DNA of 23,803 nt from a virus (Duplodnaviria; Heunggongvirae; Uroviricota; Caudoviricetes). The notes beneath the pieces were generated by a model. It was given only the letters and a program-made list of their open reading frames with translations. It ran no database searches and was not told the DNA's origin. How positions within the stretch are numbered: the stretch's first letter is position 1; each line of letters starts with the position of its first letter. The stretch is from the IMG/VR virus record IMGVR_UViG_2534682161_000021, positions 1-23,803 of that record; one strand, given 5' to 3'. This document shows, in pieces, positions 8,332-16,905 of the stretch. The position numbers were made by a program, and so were the translations under genes.

Positions 8332-8610
8332 TTACCTCCAGATCCGTTGCTGGAATGTGCGGGACTGACGCGGTGGGCGTTCGGAATAAGGAAGCCTGAC
8401 GTAGATTATCCAGTGACGATAATCGGGGCTGAGGGCTTTCTTAATCTCGTATCCGCGTCTGCGGTAGCAATGAATTAACCATTCAGCCTGTTCTTCAGTG
8501 CATGGAGAATGCTGGAACCAGTCCGATTTGAATGCGTGAAAACGCCGTCCGCACCTGCTGGCAAAGACGGCAGAATCATCAGAATTGTGTAATTTGGTAT
8601 CGTGCGCCAT
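8332..8610 (-). CDS. small prophage protein at the rem position (hypothetical)
   Basis: ORF between hok and the ydfU-like gene; start chosen at the internal ATG (MAHDTKLHNSDD...). Assignment is by synteny only. Confidence 0.3.
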   Translation of the reverse strand: MAHDTKLHNSDDSAVFASRCGRRFHAFKSDWFQHSPCTEEQAEWLIHCYRRRGYEIKKALSPDYRHWIIYVRLPYSERPPRQSRTFQQRIWR

Positions 8611-8994
8611 CGGTTGTCTCTGCTGGCGCAGCAGGTGCCAGTTGTTCAGGCTGGCGTATAAAGTATAAATAAACTGGTTCCAGTGTAAAGCCCCTACATT
8701 AATGAAATAAAAATCAAACAACAGATTGCTGGGATAAAACACAACGCTTATTATTAAAAGCGATTAGATAAATTAAATTTTAATGTTATGCAAATTTGCC
8801 AGATCACCATAATATCTCGTTTGAAACCACCGAAATAACAACCATATCAATATTGATTATGTTAAAGCGAGTAAATATGGAAAACAACAAATCTGCACAT
8901 TACGCTCCTTTTTTATCTGTGATACTTTTTGTTTTATGCTGTGTGTGGGCATTATTTTTATAAAAATATTTACAGATAAAATAAACCCGCCGAA

Positions 8995-9225
8995 TCAAGT
9001 TAAGTGTGGGTGCATTGAGGATGCCTGACTCATCAGAGGTGGCGAGGGATTTCTCCCTCGCCTGGTCTCTAACTCCTCAGGTTCGTAAGCTGTGAAGACA
9101 GCGACCTCCGTTTGGCTGGTTCGGATTCGTACCTCACAGAGATCTTTCCTCGTTACCAGTGCCGTCACAATGACAGTTAAACAGATGACAATCAGGGCGA
9201 TTAACATCGCCTTATGCTGCTTCAT
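8995..9225 (-). CDS. hok: Hok/Gef-family type I toxin, HokD-like, with a C-terminal extension
   Basis: AAGGAG RBS then MKQHKAMLIALIVICLTVIVTALVTRKDLCEVRIRTSQTEVAVFTAYEPEE, nearly identical to the recalled HokD/RelF. The frame continues 25 codons because the codon after EPEE is TTA rather than a stop. Confidence 0.8.
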   Translation of the reverse strand: MKQHKAMLIALIVICLTVIVTALVTRKDLCEVRIRTSQTEVAVFTAYEPEELETRRGRNPSPPLMSQASSMHPHLT

Positions 9226-9810
9226 AGCCTGCTTCTCCTTGCCTTTCGGCACGTAAGAGGCTAACCTACGTGTGCAAGTCATAGATATGGCCTCAGATTA
9301 ATGTTAGGCGTCTTGCAGGACGCGTAATGTTAACTGGGGCTTTTCTCTATCTGCCGTTGGTATTCATGCCTGAGACAGATAGCCTCAAGCACCCGCAGCA
9401 ATCCTACTTAACTCCCGTCACCTCGCCAATATAAAATCAATCAGAAAGGCGATCCATAAGAACAACAGCAAGACAATAAATTGCCATTACAGCCGCAATA
9501 GCGAGCGCACATTTGAGAACCAGCACGACAACCTCCTGTATTGGACGTACACCAGTCCTGATAAATATGAGGCTGTCTCATCATTGATTCAATAAAACTA
9601 TTGGGAATAGTTTCTGTGATTTTGTTCTGTAGAAATGGAACACAACAACCAGTCACCACCAGCACTTCTTTAAAAACGCCAAGTCCGACGCAAGCTAACC
9701 TTCTAGTCCGCTTTGAACGATGAGCGGAAATTGACATATCTGTTAAAGTGAATGGTTCGTTTTGCAGGGATACTTACACTGCCCCCTGTCAAAATGATAT
9801 ACCGAAGAAT

Positions 9811-9815
9811 AAGAG
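9811..9815. repeat. IS2 target-site duplication, left copy (AAGAG)
   Basis: AAGAG immediately flanks both IS2 ends. Confidence 0.85.
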
Positions 9816-9906
9816 TAGACTGGCCCCCTGAATCTCCAGACAACCAGTATCACTTAAATAAGTGATAGTCTTAATACTAGTTTTTAGACTAGTCATTGGA
9901 GAACAG

Positions 9907-10272
9907 ATGATTGATGTCTTAGGGCCGGAGAAACGCAGACGGCGTACCACACAGGAAAAGATCGCAATTGTTCAGCAGAGCTTTGAACCGGGGATGACGG
10001 TCTCCCTCGTTGCCCGGCAACATGGTGTAGCAGCCAGCCAGTTATTTCTCTGGCGTAAGCAATACCAGGAAGGAAGTCTTACTGCTGTCGCCGCCGGAGA
10101 ACAGGTTGTTCCTGCCTCTGAACTTGCTGCCGCCATGAAGCAGATTAAAGAACTCCAGCGCCTGCTCGGCAAGAAAACGATGGAAAATGAACTCCTCAAA
10201 GAAGCCGTTGAATATGGACGGGCAAAAAAGTGGATAGCGCACGCGCCCTTATTGCCCGGGGATGGGGAGTAA
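9907..10272 (+). CDS. insC: IS2 transposase OrfA (InsC)
   Basis: [56 protein letters not shown]... with an HTH domain; the track start at 9862 is an upstream extension. Confidence 0.9.
10224..10230 (+). promoter_or_regulatory. AAAAAAG slippery heptamer for programmed -1 frameshifting (insC to insD)
   Basis: A6G motif at the insC/insD overlap, the standard IS3-family frameshift signal. Confidence 0.6.
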
Positions 10273-11135
10273 GCTTAGTCAGCCGTTGTCTCCGGGTGTC
10301 GCGTGCGCAGTTGCACGTCATTCTCAGACGAACCGATGACTGGATGGATGGCCGCCGCAGTCGTCACACTGATGATACGGATGTGCTTCTCCGTATACAC
10401 CATGTTATCGGAGAGCTGCCCACGTATGGTTATCGTCGGGTATGGGCGCTGCTTCGCAGACAGGCAGAACTTGATGGTATGCCTGCGATCAATGCCAAAC
10501 GTGTTTACCGGATCATGCGCCAGAATGCGCTGTTGCTTGAGCGAAAACCTGCTGTACCGCCATCGAAACGGGCACATACAGGCAGAGTGGCCGTGAAAGA
10601 AAGCAATCAGCGATGGTGCTCTGACGGGTTCGAGTTCTGCTGTGATAACGGAGAGAGACTGCGTGTCACGTTCGCGCTGGACTGCTGTGATCGTGAGGCA
10701 CTGCACTGGGCGGTGACTACTGGCGGCTTCAACAGTGAAACAGTACAGGACGTCATGCTGGGAGCGGTGGAACGCCGCTTCGGCAACGATCTTCCGTCGT
10801 CTCCAGTGGAGTGGCTGACGGATAATGGTTCATGCTACCGGGCTAATGAAACACGCCAGTTCGCCCGGATGTTGGGACTTGAACCGAAGAACACGGCGGT
10901 GCGGAGTCCGGAGAGTAACGGAATAGCAGAGAGCTTCGTGAAAACGATAAAGCGTGACTACATCAGTATCATGCCCAAACCAGACGGGTTAACGGCAGCA
11001 AAGAACCTTGCAGAGGCGTTCGAGCATTATAACGAATGGCATCCGCATAGTGCGCTGGGTTATCGCTCGCCACGGGAATATCTGCGGCAGCGGGCTTGTA
11101 ATGGGTTAAGTGATAACAGATGTCTGGAAATATAG
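10230..11135 (+). CDS. insD: IS2 transposase OrfB (InsD), DDE catalytic domain
   Basis: 301-aa frame overlapping insC in the -1 frame; recalled InsD sequence. Confidence 0.9.
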
Positions 11136-11146
11136 GGGCAAATCCA

Positions 11147-11151
11147 AAGAG
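11147..11151. repeat. IS2 target-site duplication, right copy (AAGAG)
   Basis: Identical to 9811-9815. Confidence 0.85.
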
Positions 11152-11188
11152 TTCTTCTTCAAGAACAACAAAAAGAGATCATTCCAGC

Positions 11189-11422
11189 ATGCTGGAAACG
11201 CAGCGTGTAATGATGACGGATAAGACTCTGGCGCATTCCATGACAGCGGCAAAGGCCATAGCAGCCAATCAGATAGCTAGAATAGCCGCGAGGAAGGAAA
11301 GCCACCAGCAAAATGAAGCCATCGAGCGCTTGCGCGTAAATACGCGAATCTTAAACGGCGCAGAGATGCAGATTTACCCGCAACTGGCGACTTCAGCAAT
11401 GAACCGCATACAGACCGAGTAA
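11189..11422 (+). CDS. small helical hypothetical protein (77 aa), first gene of the plus-strand accessory module
   Basis: First ATG after the IS2 right end (the track ORF starts inside IS2); Ala/Gln-rich and helical (MLETQRVMMTDKTLAHSMTAAKAIAANQIARIAARKESHQQNEAIERLRV...). Confidence 0.3.
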   Translation: MLETQRVMMTDKTLAHSMTAAKAIAANQIARIAARKESHQQNEAIERLRVNTRILNGAEMQIYPQLATSAMNRIQTE

Positions 11423-11586
11423 GTGATGCGCTGGATGCCGTATTGAAAAGACAGCCAGAAAAGCGGTATTGGGTTCCAGAGGGTTTTAGAGGTTAAAGCG
11501 CTCACAAATCTAGCTAATTTGTAACCATCTTTAAACGTTTATGATATTGTTAAATAAAACTAAAACTACCACGGCATGATTTACCG

Positions 11587-12285
11587 ATGAAAAAAGAACT
11601 TGAAACCATACTGCCTGAGTTTGGTGAGGCAATTCGCCCTTACGTTTATAGTTACGTAACAGCAAACAAAAATGCCAATGCCAAGCACGTCCTGTTTATG
11701 GCTGGTTCGCCTGCTGCAGGTAAAACCGAGCTCTTAAATCGTCTTTTAGAACAACATGGCATCACAAACATTGTTCGAATTGATGCTGATGATTTTCGCT
11801 GGTGGTTCCCCTACTACAATGAAGAGAACTCTGTGGACTATCAGAGACCTGCCTCCAGAATGGTCGATTTTATCTACAAAAAAGCGCTATCTGAAGGCTA
11901 TCCCATTGTTATGGACTCTACTTTCTCCAGTATAGGTATTGCGGAGAGAAACTTTGATCTGGCCCTGAAGGCTGGTTATCAGGTAGCACTGAATTACGTC
12001 TATTTTGATCCGGCTTACGCGTGGGTTTTTGCCCAAGCCCGCTCTCGTAAGGTTCCGTTAGAGGTTCTTAAAGCGAACTTTTTCAAGAGCAGAGAGACCA
12101 TTGAACATATGCTCGCGAAATATGCAGGCCTATTTACACTCAATGTTTATCATCGACGGGAAGATCCTGAAAATGATGGTCAGTTCGTGGTCGACTATAC
12201 TCCTAACGTGACCCTTGAAAACTGGACTACCTCCCATAGCTGCCCATATTCAGACGTTAGCGATCTAGCGCATTTAGGTGTATAA
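11587..12285 (+). CDS. zeta-toxin-like P-loop kinase
   Basis: Walker A MAGSPAAGKTEL, followed by RIDADDFR and then MDSTF, the arrangement of zeta/PezT-type kinases. Confidence 0.6.
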   Translation: MKKELETILPEFGEAIRPYVYSYVTANKNANAKHVLFMAGSPAAGKTELLNRLLEQHGITNIVRIDADDFRWWFPYYNEENSVDYQRPASRMVDFIYKKALSEGYPIVMDSTFSSIGIAERNFDLALKAGYQVALNYVYFDPAYAWVFAQARSRKVPLEVLKANFFKSRETIEHMLAKYAGLFTLNVYHRREDPENDGQFVVDYTPNVTLENWTTSHSCPYSDVSDLAHLGV

Positions 12286-12310
12286 TAAGTGTCCTATCTA
12301 AGGAGTGTAT

Positions 12311-12937
12311 ATGTCTGTTAAAACTGAAGCCATTAAACCAGCTGCTGAAATTTCGTTGTTCGATGCATTCGGACCTAACGTGAGCGAGCGGGTACAAGCC
12401 ATCAACCGGAAGGCCGCTGAGCTTTCTATGGCTGATATGGCTCAGGTAATGGACGTGACATTATCGTCTAGGAAGAAACTGGAAGTAACTGCTGAGAGCA
12501 AATATATTCTCGATTTGCCTCAATGGCTAGAAGTCAATGCACGGAAACCTGGAGTTTCTTTTGACATGAAAGCATACACTTCTGTTGAAGTTAACAAGAT
12601 GCATGTTCCTGACTTTCGCCAGTTCCTTCCTGTAGGTGCAAATATGTTGCATACCTATTCACCAATCGGTAAAACGGGCCTGCAAGGAATTCATGATTAT
12701 TTAATCGGTGCTGTTTCATCTAAACTTCATCACTTGCAAGGTGTCGGAGTTGATGAGGGCACGTTTAAAATACTTATCCGCTATGAAGATGCTAAAACGG
12801 GTGCTCCCCGCAATGATATAGTTGAAGCTGAGTCGACAATTAGCCCAAGTTCTTTCACTAGGCTCAAGCCCCGTGTGAAAAAACTTCGCAGAAAAGGTCA
12901 TGAAATGGCGATGCATGCACTAATTGCCAAAAAATAG
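12311..12937 (+). CDS. hypothetical protein (208 aa), co-transcribed with the zeta-like kinase
   Basis: AAGGAG 5 nt upstream of ATG 12311 (the track start at 12305 is GTG); 25-bp gap after the kinase; followed by a terminator; no family recognised. Confidence 0.5.
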   Translation: MSVKTEAIKPAAEISLFDAFGPNVSERVQAINRKAAELSMADMAQVMDVTLSSRKKLEVTAESKYILDLPQWLEVNARKPGVSFDMKAYTSVEVNKMHVPDFRQFLPVGANMLHTYSPIGKTGLQGIHDYLIGAVSSKLHHLQGVGVDEGTFKILIRYEDAKTGAPRNDIVEAESTISPSSFTRLKPRVKKLRRKGHEMAMHALIAKK

Positions 12938-12949
12938 TAAGCCCTTAAC

Positions 12950-12980
12950 AAAACCTCACTCGATTGTGAGGTTTTTGCTT
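12950..12980 (+). terminator. rho-independent terminator ending the accessory operon
   Basis: AAACCTCAC-tcgatt-GTGAGGTTT followed by a T-rich tract (TTGCTTTCT). Confidence 0.55.
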
Positions 12981-13475
12981 TCTGGCGTTCTAAAAGTCAA
13001 TCACTCCAGCTCACCAGCGCGGTTAATCTCTAAAACCGATTTAGTTTTCGGCATAGTGCCCTTCGTCGTCTCTTTCTGCGTACATCAAACAACATCTACG
13101 GCCCATAGCGGATCACCATCAGCATGCAGCCACTGACTGGTTAAAGTCTCCTTTTCGTTTATCTTAGCAAGCTGGTACTGCGTGTGGATCCCGCCCATTT
13201 CTGCATACTGTCGAAAATCGATGAGATGGCCAGTCGTGTTTGTTATTGGTCTATTTTTGAAAACAACTATCAATGCTATTGGTCTGTTCTTCGTTAATTA
13301 ATATGCAATCCTTTCATGACACAGGGCTACTGTTACAGCCCTGACAACCTTAGACTTCAATCGATTCAGAGATCTCTAACGCATCATCGCCCCGTTGAAC
13401 TCACAGCGATAAGTAGACGCTGGCGGCAATAACACAGAAGTATAGCGGGAATTTGAACCACATAATTTATGTTTG

Positions 13476-13928
13476 TTAGATGGCTTTGCTTCGATATTCA
13501 ATTTCTAAAATCGCCTTTGTCATTGCCGCAATAGTTATAGCTTCTACCATAGTTAATTCAGGCCTGTTCAAGCTTCCGTGTCCAGCAGTAGGTAGTTTGT
13601 TGCGTAAATCATAAATATCTTTAACAATATCAATAAGATTCTTAGGTAATTTTGACATTTTTTCGAACTGTTTAAAAAAACCACCCAATGACTCATTTGC
13701 CACATTCGGGTTTTGAGTGATTTCCTTCGCCATAGTTTCTAGAATATTAGAGGCTGCGTGCAGTGCACCCGCAGGGTCATTATTATCCAAGCAATTATTC
13801 ATTCTATCTATTTGCTGAATGATATTTGGATGCAATCTCTTTAAGTAATCACTAGCCAATTCTTCATTGAAGTTTTTGACACTTTCAAAAACATCGCAAT
13901 CTAAATAAAATTTAGGATTGACTGACAT
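13476..13928 (-). CDS. hypothetical protein (150 aa); downstream half of a frame split by an in-frame TAG
   Basis: Very AT-rich; same frame as 13998-14342 with only one stop codon between them; C-terminal R-x7-H (RNKLPTAGH) vaguely HEPN-like. Confidence 0.4.
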   Translation of the reverse strand: MSVNPKFYLDCDVFESVKNFNEELASDYLKRLHPNIIQQIDRMNNCLDNNDPAGALHAASNILETMAKEITQNPNVANESLGGFFKQFEKMSKLPKNLIDIVKDIYDLRNKLPTAGHGSLNRPELTMVEAITIAAMTKAILEIEYRSKAI

Positions 13929-13997
13929 CCATGTATATTTCCAATCATTTTCTAAATTATCTTTTTCCGCACTACGCCTGCCAGTATCCTGATCTAT

Positions 13998-14342
13998 CTA
14001 ATCAACATATTTACACATATAATCGGCGTAATAGTGTAAATATCTAAATGATATTTCTGGGCAAAAATTACTAACTGATGCAAGGCCGCCATATTCTTTT
14101 GTAGTAACTGTTGGGACTTCTTCATCACATAAATATGAGAAACTAGTTCTTTCCCCAAATTCGCCCAACTCTTTTTCTTTCCTAGTTGCCATACCAGCTA
14201 TCATATTGATGCTTGAGAGCAAAACTACACTCTGATAGTACCGAGGACATCTGTATGAACTAGCATATGGGCATTTTGATGATGCTTTACGATTAATACG
14301 CTCTTTTTCCCACCAATTTTTATCAGGAATAATTCTTTGCAT
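13998..14342 (-). CDS. hypothetical Cys-rich protein (114 aa); upstream half of the split frame
   Basis: Ends at TAG 14000-13998; the next 23 codons are open and in frame with the ATG at 13928. Confidence 0.4.
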   Translation of the reverse strand: MQRIIPDKNWWEKERINRKASSKCPYASSYRCPRYYQSVVLLSSINMIAGMATRKEKELGEFGERTSFSYLCDEEVPTVTTKEYGGLASVSNFCPEISFRYLHYYADYMCKYVD

Positions 14343-14806
14343 AATTTATGCTACTATCTCACGAGTGAATGAATGTTTAGCCTTCTGCACAGTTTATCAG
14401 TTCCGGCATACCTACTGCTACCCCACTGATTCAACTTTAAGTTATGGATTAAAGCGATTCGGTTTCGCTAGATGACACACTAGTGTTAACTTATGGATAA
14501 AAATTTATCACTTAAAATTAACTAATGACTGTAGCGACCAAAAGTGTGCCAGAATGTTATTTTCGTCTGGCCTATTATCAATCTAATTACCCAAATTAAA
14601 GTTACTCTCCTTCATCAGCAAAAAATAAATACGCCTGTTCACTTTCTCAAAGTGTTCCTGTGTTATTTTTAAAGTTAACAACGCCGTCTATTCGTCCAAA
14701 TGTACAACAAACATCAGACTCTGGCACAACGCTGACAATGAGAATAGTTCTAGCCCTGTGCCACAGAAATGTCAATTCACATATGTATTAATGCTCTTTA
14801 ATCTCG

Positions 14807-15229
14807 TCACTTCAATAAATAGCGAACATTTCCCTGATAAAATGCCAACACTCGCTGCATTACTTCACTTTCCAGACACTCGCGACAAACCATGTTATGG
14901 CGACTATCGTAGCGACGAATTTCTCCGTCAGGTAATGACCAGATAAGGTCCGGATCAACCATAGACGGTTTCTTCCCCTTTGCCCTCGATAGTTTTTTGC
15001 GGGCGTTTTGCCAGTCCTTACGAGCCTGTTCTGACGGGAATAACCCATAGCCAGAGTTGTATACATCGCCACTGGCAACCAGCTCCCAGGCAAGAACGCT
15101 AATCAGATATCTTGTCGCACCTGTTTTAGCTTCCAGCTGTCGTAACGTCTCGCGCCCACTCTGGCGTACGAGTGCAACAACCTGTCCCTTAATTTTTTCC
15201 CGCTCTTCTTGTGTAAAAACTTTTGCCAC
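14807..15229 (-). CDS. hypothetical protein (140 aa) directly downstream of the O-like initiator
   Basis: GTG start with AGGAGG 5 nt upstream; sits where a helicase loader would be but has no recognisable DnaC or lambda-P features. Confidence 0.45.
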   Translation of the reverse strand: MAKVFTQEEREKIKGQVVALVRQSGRETLRQLEAKTGATRYLISVLAWELVASGDVYNSGYGLFPSEQARKDWQNARKKLSRAKGKKPSMVDPDLIWSLPDGEIRRYDSRHNMVCRECLESEVMQRVLAFYQGNVRYLLK

Positions 15230-15269
15230 AAGTCCTCCTGAAAATTACCTCATGATCTGAAATCAATAC

Positions 15270-16232
15270 CTACCCCCTGAACCCTGGTGGAATTTCGGTG
15301 TCAGGTTCAGAAATATGATTCACACAACGCTGTACAGGCGAACGCCCCAGACGGATAACCAGCTCATCCCATTTATCGCGAAGTTTTGACGGGCTCATGA
15401 TGTTTTTTACCCAGAATGGATCCCGCTGTACCCGACCAAACATTTCGCAGATTTGTCTGTGAGTTCTGCCATCCAGCATCCGCATTATGCGCACGTCATT
15501 GGCCCATGCTGTCCAGTTGGGTTCTTTCGGTCGGGTGATCTCGCCATCATCGCTGGCGGCCTGTTCGTAAAGACTCACGATTCGCCCCCAGATCCACTGT
15601 GCGCATGCCAAATCCTCCTGAGTTCCCCACTGACGTTTTTTTGCACTAAACACAACCGCATCAGGATGTCGGGTTAAAAAATCCTGTTCAGCCGTCTGCG
15701 GGTCCGGTTGCGAAGCTTCCGGACGAAAAGATCTTTTATCTGACGGATCAGGTTTTAATACTGACGGATCGGGGCCAACCATCGCCCCCCTAACCGGCTG
15801 TTTTTTACCAACGGTTGATCCATCAAAATTTGACGGGTCAACCGTTGAGGGGGCAATATTTGACTGGTCAACTGTTAACGGGTCATTTTTTGCCGGGCTA
15901 ATTTTTCTTTTCGGTTTATATGCCTCACGCGCCGCCTCAGCTGCTGCTTCGAGTTTTTCCACATTAAGGCGGTAGATATTGCTTTCATTACGCCCACCGA
16001 CCTTACGCTCCTCCTTCGTCAGCCAGCCGTTCTTTTCCAGTTCCGCTATCGCCGCTTTAACCGTTGATTCACTCTTTGCCCCAATCTGACGACGAATGGT
16101 CTCCACTGCAGGCCATGACACACCTTCGTCATTGCTGTAGTCTGCAAGGCGAGCCATTACTGCCACCCTGGATAAGATCATGCCGGTGAAGGCGCACCCT
16201 TCCCAGACAAGACCATGAAGCTTGCTGCTCAT
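15270..16232 (-). CDS. replication initiator (lambda O-like), ori iterons embedded in the gene
   Basis: N-terminal HTH-like region, a central repeated peptide (PLTVDQ / PSTVDPS / GSTVGK) encoded by DNA iterons, then a C-terminal domain; position after cro and the CII-like gene. Confidence 0.6.
   Translation of the reverse strand: MSSKLHGLVWEGCAFTGMILSRVAVMARLADYSNDEGVSWPAVETIRRQIGAKSESTVKAAIAELEKNGWLTKEERKVGGRNESNIYRLNVEKLEAAAEAAREAYKPKRKISPAKNDPLTVDQSNIAPSTVDPSNFDGSTVGKKQPVRGAMVGPDPSVLKPDPSDKRSFRPEASQPDPQTAEQDFLTRHPDAVVFSAKKRQWGTQEDLACAQWIWGRIVSLYEQAASDDGEITRPKEPNWTAWANDVRIMRMLDGRTHRQICEMFGRVQRDPFWVKNIMSPSKLRDKWDELVIRLGRSPVQRCVNHISEPDTEIPPGFRG
15741..15915. repeat. iteron array (about 6 copies of TGAC(G/T)G(A/G)TCA) plus AT-rich tract: candidate origin
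   Basis: TGACGGATCA twice (15741, 15762), TTGATCCATCA, TGACGGGTCA (15831), TGACTGGTCA (15861), ACGGGTCA (15878), then TTTTTTGCCGGGCTAATTTTTCTTTTCGG. Confidence 0.5.
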
Positions 16233-16255
16233 AAAAAACCCCGAACACCGTGCTT

Positions 16256-16681
16256 TTAGTGCATCACCACAGCATTTCCTGCCGGGCCACCACGATTCAT
16301 CTGATTGAAACCGGCGATTGCCACTGCGACAAAATCATCAGCGTCTCTCACCAGTCGTTCCCGCGTCTCCACCAACTCCCGAAAATAGGCTGAACTGTGG
16401 CTGCGCATCCGGGCCACCAGCAGAGGTGGCATTGCTTTTTCGATTGCTGGTAACAACGCCTGAATTTTTTCAACCGCATCAGTGGTGTCTTTCTCCACCC
16501 AGCGGAAAATTTTCTGAGTATTACGAACCAGGGCTTCTGGATGGCTGTCGTCGTACAGTTCCGGGGACGTCATTCCCAGTTCGAAATAAGCCCTGGTTAT
16601 CTTGGCCGCCGGAACTTTTTCACCATCCGGACGCGCCCAGGCATTCATAGCCATGCGGATGTGTTCATGCTTGATTTTCAT
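16256..16681 (-). CDS. YdaT-like (CII-like) prophage regulator
   Basis: Starts MKIKHEHI as recalled for Rac YdaT; ATGA overlap with the cro-like gene. Confidence 0.55.
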   Translation of the reverse strand: MKIKHEHIRMAMNAWARPDGEKVPAAKITRAYFELGMTSPELYDDSHPEALVRNTQKIFRWVEKDTTDAVEKIQALLPAIEKAMPPLLVARMRSHSSAYFRELVETRERLVRDADDFVAVAIAGFNQMNRGGPAGNAVVMH

Positions 16682-16905
16682 GAATCATTCTTTCCTTCGT
16701 TCAAGGTGTTATCCTTCTTTTTGTAAAGTTCTGGGTTCAAAGATAATTTTCCCTTGGAGTATGCGGCAGCTTCCGCGGCCCTCCCCTTGGGAACTATTTC
16801 ACCAGGACGTTTGCGCCACATGTATATAGCTTCACGGGTTATCCCATAAAAATCGGCAACTCTCTGAACAGAGCCAAAAAACTGGACAAGTTCATCAACT
16901 CGCAT
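16678..16905 (-). CDS. Cro-like (YdaS-like) HTH regulator
   Basis: AGGAGG RBS; HTH pattern VQRVADFYGITREAIYMW resembles P22 Cro/YdaS; divergent from the cI-like gene. Confidence 0.6.
   Translation of the reverse strand: MRVDELVQFFGSVQRVADFYGITREAIYMWRKRPGEIVPKGRAAEAAAYSKGKLSLNPELYKKKDNTLNEGKNDS

Follow-up and report, generated by a model that had tools for sequence, protein, structure and literature searches.

Introduction

Among the described systems, the copy IS2A of Escherichia coli K-12 stands closest to the element reported here. It is an insertion sequence (IS) of 1331 bp with terminal inverted repeats of 42 bp on the left (IRL) and 41 bp on the right (IRR), an A6G frameshift site, the proteins InsC and InsD, and a 5-bp target duplication, ATTAC in its case. 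Elements of the IS3 family, to which IS2 belongs, transpose by a copy-out/paste-in mechanism via a minicircle. In the minicircle the promoter Pjunc is assembled from a -35 hexamer of IRR and a -10 hexamer of IRL; its 17-bp spacer is reported to be mandatory, and junctions with one extra base to be non-functional (PMC3299598, PMC3219604). The -35 hexamer of the right end reads outward (PMC3219604), and an extended -10 promoter was located immediately interior to IRL, on the downstream side of the OrfA site TAAATAA (PMC3299598). Fusion promoters formed with IS2 have activated ampC, acrEF and neoR (reviewed in PMC9330008). IS elements are also known from the vicinity of hok genes: hokA, hokC and hokE of K-12 adjoin IS elements (Pedersen & Gerdes 1999, as cited in PMC2654758), gef is associated with IS186 (PMC3562002), and IS150 has hit sites beside hok loci in evolved lines (PMC5419217). 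Here we describe a complete IS2 in a Qin-like lambdoid prophage, contained in the 23,803 nucleotides of the IMG/VR virus record IMGVR_UViG_2534682161_000021 (positions 1 to 23,803), hereafter called the window. The element lies in a non-coding gap between two divergent units, the minus-strand hok/sok locus and a plus-strand cargo module with a zeta-toxin gene.

Identity of the IS2 copy

Direct reading of the sequence places the element from position 9816 (TAGACTGG...) to position 11146 (...GCAAATCCA), a length of 1331 bp. The element, its parts and the flanking duplication, with the sources used for each assignment (PWM, position weight matrix; aa, amino acids), are:

9811 to 9815, no strand: left copy of the 5-bp target-site duplication AAGAG; direct reading, present as a single copy in empty-site alleles
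9816 to 11146, plus strand: complete IS2 (IS3 family), 1331 bp; annotated copies and K-12 IS2A
9816 to 9857, plus strand: IRL, the 42-bp left terminal inverted repeat, with A>G at position 32; published IRL oligonucleotide (PMC3299598) and K-12
9863 to 9871, plus strand: probable PIRL, a weak extended -10 promoter, TGATAGTCT, directly inside IRL; inferred from PMC3299598 and motif reading
9907 to 10272, plus strand: insC (orfA), the IS2 repressor TnpA, 121 aa; identity with K-12 InsC1, NCBIfam NF006928, Pfam HTH_Tnp_1
10224 to 10230, plus strand: A6G (AAAAAAG) programmed -1 frameshift site; sequence and RefSeq annotation, function in PMC3299598
10230 to 11135, plus strand: insD (orfB), 301 aa, which supplies the catalytic portion of the transposase OrfAB; identity with K-12 InsD1, NCBIfam NF006918, Pfam rve and rve_3
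11106 to 11146, plus strand: IRR, the 41-bp right terminal inverted repeat, equal to the published one; comparison with the published end
11125 to 11130, plus strand: outward-reading -35 motif TGGAAA in IRR, part of Pjunc in the minicircle; own PWM on the reconstructed IRR-x-IRL junction, and literature
11147 to 11151, no strand: right copy of the 5-bp target-site duplication AAGAG; direct reading

The copy is identical to K-12 IS2A in 1327 of 1331 nucleotides (99.7 %). The four substitutions, at IS2 positions 32, 606, 900 and 906, do not affect the proteins: InsC (121 aa) and InsD (301 aa) equal those of K-12 exactly. Position 32 is an A>G exchange in IRL, the other three are silent and lie in orfB. 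The IS2 copies annotated by RefSeq in the E. coli strains MFDS1022581 and MFDS1019527 are 100 % identical to the copy in the window. Both ends agree with published sequences, the 41-bp IRR exactly (11106-11146) and the 42-bp IRL with a single mismatch at position 32 (9816-9857), and the terminal inverted repeats also emerged from an unbiased search for repeats, which placed their arms at 9825-9857 and 11106-11138. On the protein level, the NCBIfam models for the IS2 proteins TnpA and TnpB were matched with 276 bits (cut-off 229) and 728 bits (cut-off 597), respectively, and the Pfam domains HTH_Tnp_1, rve and rve_3 were present. RefSeq labels identical DNA elsewhere as an intact transposase with a 'programmed frameshift'. 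The sequence features that characterize an IS2 were found in this copy: the length and near-identity, IRL and IRR, overlapping orfA and orfB with the A6G site, and a 5-bp duplication together with an empty site. An earlier note, made from the letters of the window, had described a complete IS2 of 1331 bp with intact ends, intact insC and insD and the A6G site, and the comparisons with K-12, the published ends and the NCBIfam models bore this out. From the intact sequence and the multi-copy identical elements in related strains we infer an intact, transposition-competent copy.

The exchange at window position 9847 (IS2 position 32) falls into the transposase-binding part of IRL and distinguishes the copy from K-12 IS2A and from the published IRL. 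It is evidently compatible with transposition, since the IS2 of the MFDS strains, multi-copy and 100 % identical to the one in the window, carry the same change.

Insertion site and age of the insertion

At the junctions the window reads ACCGAAGAAT AAGAG / TAGACTGGCCCCCTG on the left and GGGGCAAATCCA / AAGAG TTCTTCTTC on the right. The two flanking 5-mers, claimed as identical before, were so on re-reading; the chance identity of two fixed 5-mers is 1/1024. For the empty site, position 9815 was joined to position 11152 with 1 kb on either side, and the reconstructed sequence was searched in complete E. coli genomes. Four of them (ARS-C301, MFDS1022581, MFDS1019527 and MB07081) contained it whole, as a continuous 2-kb stretch with 100 % identity, and four further genomes at 97.8-99.1 %. 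This is the comparison with IS2-free alleles that had been proposed for the locus; it returned the predicted 9815/11152 join, no differing junction, and thereby upheld the view of a recent simple insertion.

The resemblance to the empty-site strains extends over the whole prophage. In MFDS1022581 the prophage is collinear with both flanks: window positions 1-9816 are 100 % identical, and 11147-23151 show one mismatch in 12,005 bp. This sole substitution in 21.8 kb of shared prophage sequence outside IS2 is at position 16527, an A in the window versus a G in MFDS1022581, and sits inside a YdaT-family gene (16256-16681, minus strand). The occupied allele was not found in any of 5,426 complete E. 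coli genomes (zero copies; megablast queries 9316-11650 and the block at the left junction), and exact 32-mers across the junctions had no match in the GTDB representative genomes or in the JGI metagenome contigs. Apart from the four nucleotides, it is this insertion site without a match in the 5,426 genomes that separates the copy from K-12 IS2A. The lineage had a donor copy of the same sequence to offer, since IS2 occupies 20 chromosomal and 11 plasmid places in MFDS1022581. An empty site at 100 % identity, a single nucleotide difference in the flanks and no occupied allele in the collections searched thus show a very recent simple insertion. We assign a probability of about 0.9 to the main reading of the locus, an IS2 recently inserted by simple transposition into a Qin-like prophage, judged from sequence comparison.

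The surroundings of the target are AT-rich, with a GC content of 28 % over 25 bp on either side. The duplicated AAGAG represents the loop plus one base of a hairpin with a 7-bp stem, GAAGAAT-AAGA-GTTCTTC. In the empty target (9800-9815 joined to 11152-11172) this palindrome is nested with a second one, GTTCTT-CTTC-AAGAAC.

Predicted consequences for the zeta-toxin module

The right end of IS2 faces the plus-strand module, an orientation already given in the earlier note and confirmed by the position of IRR. The module comprises three genes (ORF, open reading frame):

11189 to 11422, plus strand: hypothetical ORF of 77 aa (WP_000894818.1), first gene of the module; ORF list and RefSeq annotation
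11587 to 12285, plus strand: zeta-toxin family P-loop kinase, 232 aa; Pfam Zeta_toxin E = 7e-29, PezT 2p5t E = 1.4e-10
12311 to 12937, plus strand: hypothetical protein of about 208 aa, starting 26 bp past the zeta-toxin stop; RefSeq annotation of the identical allele

The kinase has the Walker A motif GSPAAGKT. Of an epsilon/zeta (PezAT-like) system, the Zeta_toxin domain is present; its neighbours, the 77-aa and the 208-aa protein, gave no family or antitoxin match in sequence searches of Pfam, NCBIfam, PADLOC, PHROGs and PDB. As cargo the three genes are rare, with 8 occurrences in the 5,426 complete E. coli genomes, and neither the zeta-toxin protein nor the module matched an enterobacterial phage record in the phage collection searched.

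Only 37 bp separate the right target duplication from the ATG of the 77-aa ORF at 11189. Scored with our own sigma-70 PWM, the best promoter-like pair in this interval reached 2.3, and candidate promoters upstream of the insertion point scored 8.8 to 11.1. Because the interval cannot hold a reasonable promoter and the better candidates lie upstream, IS2 probably cuts the 77-aa ORF off from its native upstream promoter. The zeta kinase may be less affected because the 164-bp gap between the 77-aa ORF and the zeta gene contains a candidate promoter, TTGTAA-15/18-TATGAT/GATATT, with scores of 8.6 and 7.6 for the two spacings. A stringent scan detected no intrinsic-terminator-like site on the plus strand inside IS2; low-level read-through from PIRL and insCD is therefore possible.

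We propose the following course of events. An intact IS2 would have landed in the loop of a small AT-rich hairpin of a Qin-like lambdoid prophage, duplicating AAGAG. The promoter and leader of hok would have been left untouched, in a locus whose hok was already a pseudogene by loss of its stop codon. The 77-aa ORF and any co-transcribed genes would be parted by 1.3 kb from the upstream promoter, and the 77-aa ORF would then rely on weak transcription derived from IS2, either read-through from PIRL and insCD or a poor hybrid promoter at IRR. The zeta-toxin gene may retain its own promoter in the 164-bp gap. IS2 also lies in reverse orientation inside the minus-strand early operon, which connects cro and the replication genes with Q, and could exert polarity on Q. 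On balance the insertion would most likely be neutral or mildly silencing, in a prophage already in decay. Taken as a whole, these transcriptional consequences have about an even chance of being right.

Several points weigh against them. The sigma-70 PWM was self-built from consensus frequencies and is crude. Stringent scans for consensus promoters and terminators, run on the occupied and the empty allele with shuffled controls, yielded one promoter-like site per allele, a number below that of the shuffled controls and hence uninformative, and none near the insertion site. A weak candidate promoter, TTCTTC-16-GATCAT, lies wholly downstream of the insertion. Finally, the possible reduction of Q expression is deduced from the classical polarity of IS2; a literature search on the polarity of IS2 in orientations I and II gave nothing usable.

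Two further observations concern the start of the module. A perfect 16-bp palindrome, TTCCAGCATGCTGGAA, is present at 11182-11197 and centred on the ATG of the 77-aa ORF. Together with the palindromes of the empty target it could serve as an operator, or form a hairpin in which the start codon is hidden. The insertion also created an in-frame chimeric ORF of 100 aa (11120-11422, plus strand), which starts with an ATG inside IRR and extends the 77-aa ORF by 23 codons. This chimeric ORF is probably unused because no Shine-Dalgarno sequence is evident for it.

Alternative explanations

IS2 may have no functional effect at all and be a neutral passenger of the prophage, if the module has its own downstream promoter or promoters, or is silent, and the prophage is defective. 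The prophage already contained a frameshifted IS21 and the hok pseudogene, the gap before the zeta gene offers a candidate promoter, and IS2 is so abundant in related strains (the 20 chromosomal places) that many insertions are expected by drift. As only 37 bp lie between IS2 and the ATG of the 77-aa ORF, some change in transcription is hard to avoid, and we consider complete neutrality possible though on the unlikely side.

A second possibility takes into account that other E. coli prophages have IS2 in comparable positions. E. coli genomes were searched for junctions between the hok leader and either the left end of IS2 or its right end in reverse, and nine same-orientation and four opposite-orientation configurations were identified within about 1 kb of a hokD leader; including the window, at least 14 distinct configurations were found. 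Of eight complete same-orientation elements mapped, seven are each bordered by a perfect 5-bp duplication of their own (ACTAT, CGGGG, AACTC, ATAAG, GGTAT, GTCTA and TTTTC), while the eighth, in HCP6S3_I1, is flanked by AATTT and ATTTG. Two of the sites are located inside the spacer conserved with window positions 9441-9730, at the equivalents of about 9598-9602 and about 9457-9461. The slot upstream of hokD in Qin-like lambdoid prophages could accordingly be a preferred or selected landing zone of IS2, in which insertions recurrently silence the early operon or a toxin cargo. The counts cover the surroundings of hokD leaders and do not establish a hot spot, and we regard this reading as doubtful. 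By analogy, such a zone may parallel the association of IS150 and IS186 with chromosomal hok loci, and the likeness to the K-12 hok/IS pairs and to the IS150 of the evolved lines consists in an IS3-family element situated in intergenic DNA beside a hok gene, here a decayed one. An insertion that activates the rare zeta-toxin module is less likely than such a landing zone.

Activation was the interpretation of the earlier note, according to which the right end could drive the module from an outward hybrid promoter, that is, the -35 hexamer of IRR combined with a flanking -10 hexamer would switch on the zeta-toxin genes. The geometry is suitable: IRR is directed at the module, its outward -35 is documented, the activations of ampC, acrEF and neoR are precedents, and the IS2-ampC fusion (Jaurin & Normark 1983, as cited in PMC9330008) and Pjunc show the same outward -35 of IRR facing a downstream gene. 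The required sequence is missing. Reconstructed from the IRR-x-IRL junction, Pjunc has TAGACT at 17 bp (TGGAAA-17-TAGACT) and scores 9.6; at the same distance, reported as mandatory for Pjunc, the window has AGAGTT, with one of six consensus matches and a score of -2.0. One base closer, at 16 bp from TGGAAA, the hexamer AAGAGT matches in three of six positions, including the key A2 and T6, but its score of 4.8 is background, a value reached by the top 0.4 % or so of hexamer-pair positions in the window. An outward -35 with a -10 at 17 bp is thus not found in the sequence, nor did the stringent scan report anything here. A hybrid promoter at the right junction is predicted to be weak at best, and activation of the module by it appears quite improbable.

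Selection for the insertion is a further alternative: it would either block the early operon at a point separating the replication genes from Q, and so disable lytic induction (domestication), or, as a variant, silence the toxin loci nearby. IS2 does separate the cro and replication genes (13476-16905) from the block hok-DUF968-RusA-Q (6247-9225), in opposite orientation to them, and the equivalent slot of other prophages was hit independently in the at least nine same-orientation and the four opposite configurations. IS elements inactivate chromosomal hok loci of K-12 (PMC2654758), and in evolution experiments IS150 has repeatedly struck intergenic DNA beside hok (PMC5419217). A preference of IS2 for one orientation in the hok vicinity was rejected, with 10 elements in the same orientation (the window included) versus 4 in the opposite one; enrichment is unproven for site counts taken in this slot; and the occupied allele, found in no other genome searched, gives no sign of spread. 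Selection is on these grounds very improbable. Finally, IS2-rich strains do rearrange, and so a recombination or rearrangement junction marked by IS2, with a coincidental match of the 5-mers, was considered as well; it found no supporting point and is practically ruled out by the single AAGAG between contiguous flanks in eight genomes and by the collinearity of the whole 21.8 kb with MFDS1022581.

The preferred reading, a recent simple insertion that probably uncouples the 77-aa ORF, describes a known element behaving in a known way and is unremarkable as such, of little importance beyond annotation. As a strain-specific event the insertion could mark the lineage of a clone close to MFDS1022581 and MFDS1019527. 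The rare zeta-toxin cargo module probably has an altered expression in this strain, and the locus is one more instance of IS3-family elements recurrently associated with prophage DNA next to hok.

The neighbouring hok locus

Three features of the hok locus lie on the minus strand, on the other side of the element:

8995 to 9225, minus strand: hok ORF lacking its stop codon (TAA>TTA) and thereby lengthened from 51 to 76 aa; hokD alleles of three other loci
9220 to 9394, minus strand: leader of the hok mRNA, reaching from its 5' end to the start codon AUG; Rfam RF01794, 108 bits versus a gathering score of 59, full model
9401 to 9429, minus strand: predicted hok promoter TTGGCG-17-TAGGAT, intact; own PWM score 11.0, top 0.005 % of the window

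The alignment to RF01794, named the 'sok' model, opens at GGGUGCUUGAGG and closes at the Shine-Dalgarno sequence and AUG of hok. Because it ends there, the match marks the leader of the hok mRNA, with a transcription start at about 9394, and the position of the predicted promoter fits this start. Of the two parts of a hok/sok locus, the leader is matched at 108 bits, and the ORF has 76 aa where a Hok/Gef ORF has about 50. In comparison with other hokD alleles the ORF carries the further changes Q4H and G37S, and an in-frame upstream ATG at 9282 would extend it to 95 aa. PGAP calls the identical hok allele in an empty-site genome a pseudogene. The loss of the stop codon is older than IS2, since it is also present in the empty-site allele.

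IS2 is 422 bp away from the hok transcript start and 387 bp away from the predicted hok promoter. That IS2 disrupts the promoter or the leader of hok was ruled out, as both are intact and hundreds of base pairs distant. The earlier placement of the element just upstream of the hok leader thus held for the upstream side and only loosely for the distance; on its other side the element comes far nearer to the 77-aa ORF, with 37 bp to the ATG. Herein lies the difference from the hok loci of K-12 and from the IS150 insertions of the evolved lines: the IS2 of the window lies 422 bp upstream of the hok transcript, has hit no regulatory element of hok, and arrived when the hok defect already existed.

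The best sigma-70-like site of the region, TTAACT-18-TAAAAT (9408-9437, plus strand), stands back to back over the predicted hok promoter and is directed toward the conserved spacer at 9441-9730.

Prophage context

The layout of the prophage was taken from the RefSeq annotation of the identical empty-site allele and from Rfam. On the minus strand Q (6247-6912) is followed by RusA, DUF968, a small hypothetical gene and hok, a block that spans 6247-9225. Further minus-strand genes encode two hypothetical proteins, a DUF977 protein, a replication-type HTH protein, YdaT and Cro. Beyond Cro the plus strand carries the repressor gene, the DicF RNA (18984-19035), dicB, an exonuclease gene, xis and int. 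The gene for the small RNA DicF was matched in Rfam with 76.7 bits; because it stands upstream of dicB, the Qin-like nature of the prophage is confirmed. The start of the window, about positions 1-450, lies inside a frameshifted IS21 (istA and istB pseudogenes) near the lysis genes, a second and older IS event in this prophage.

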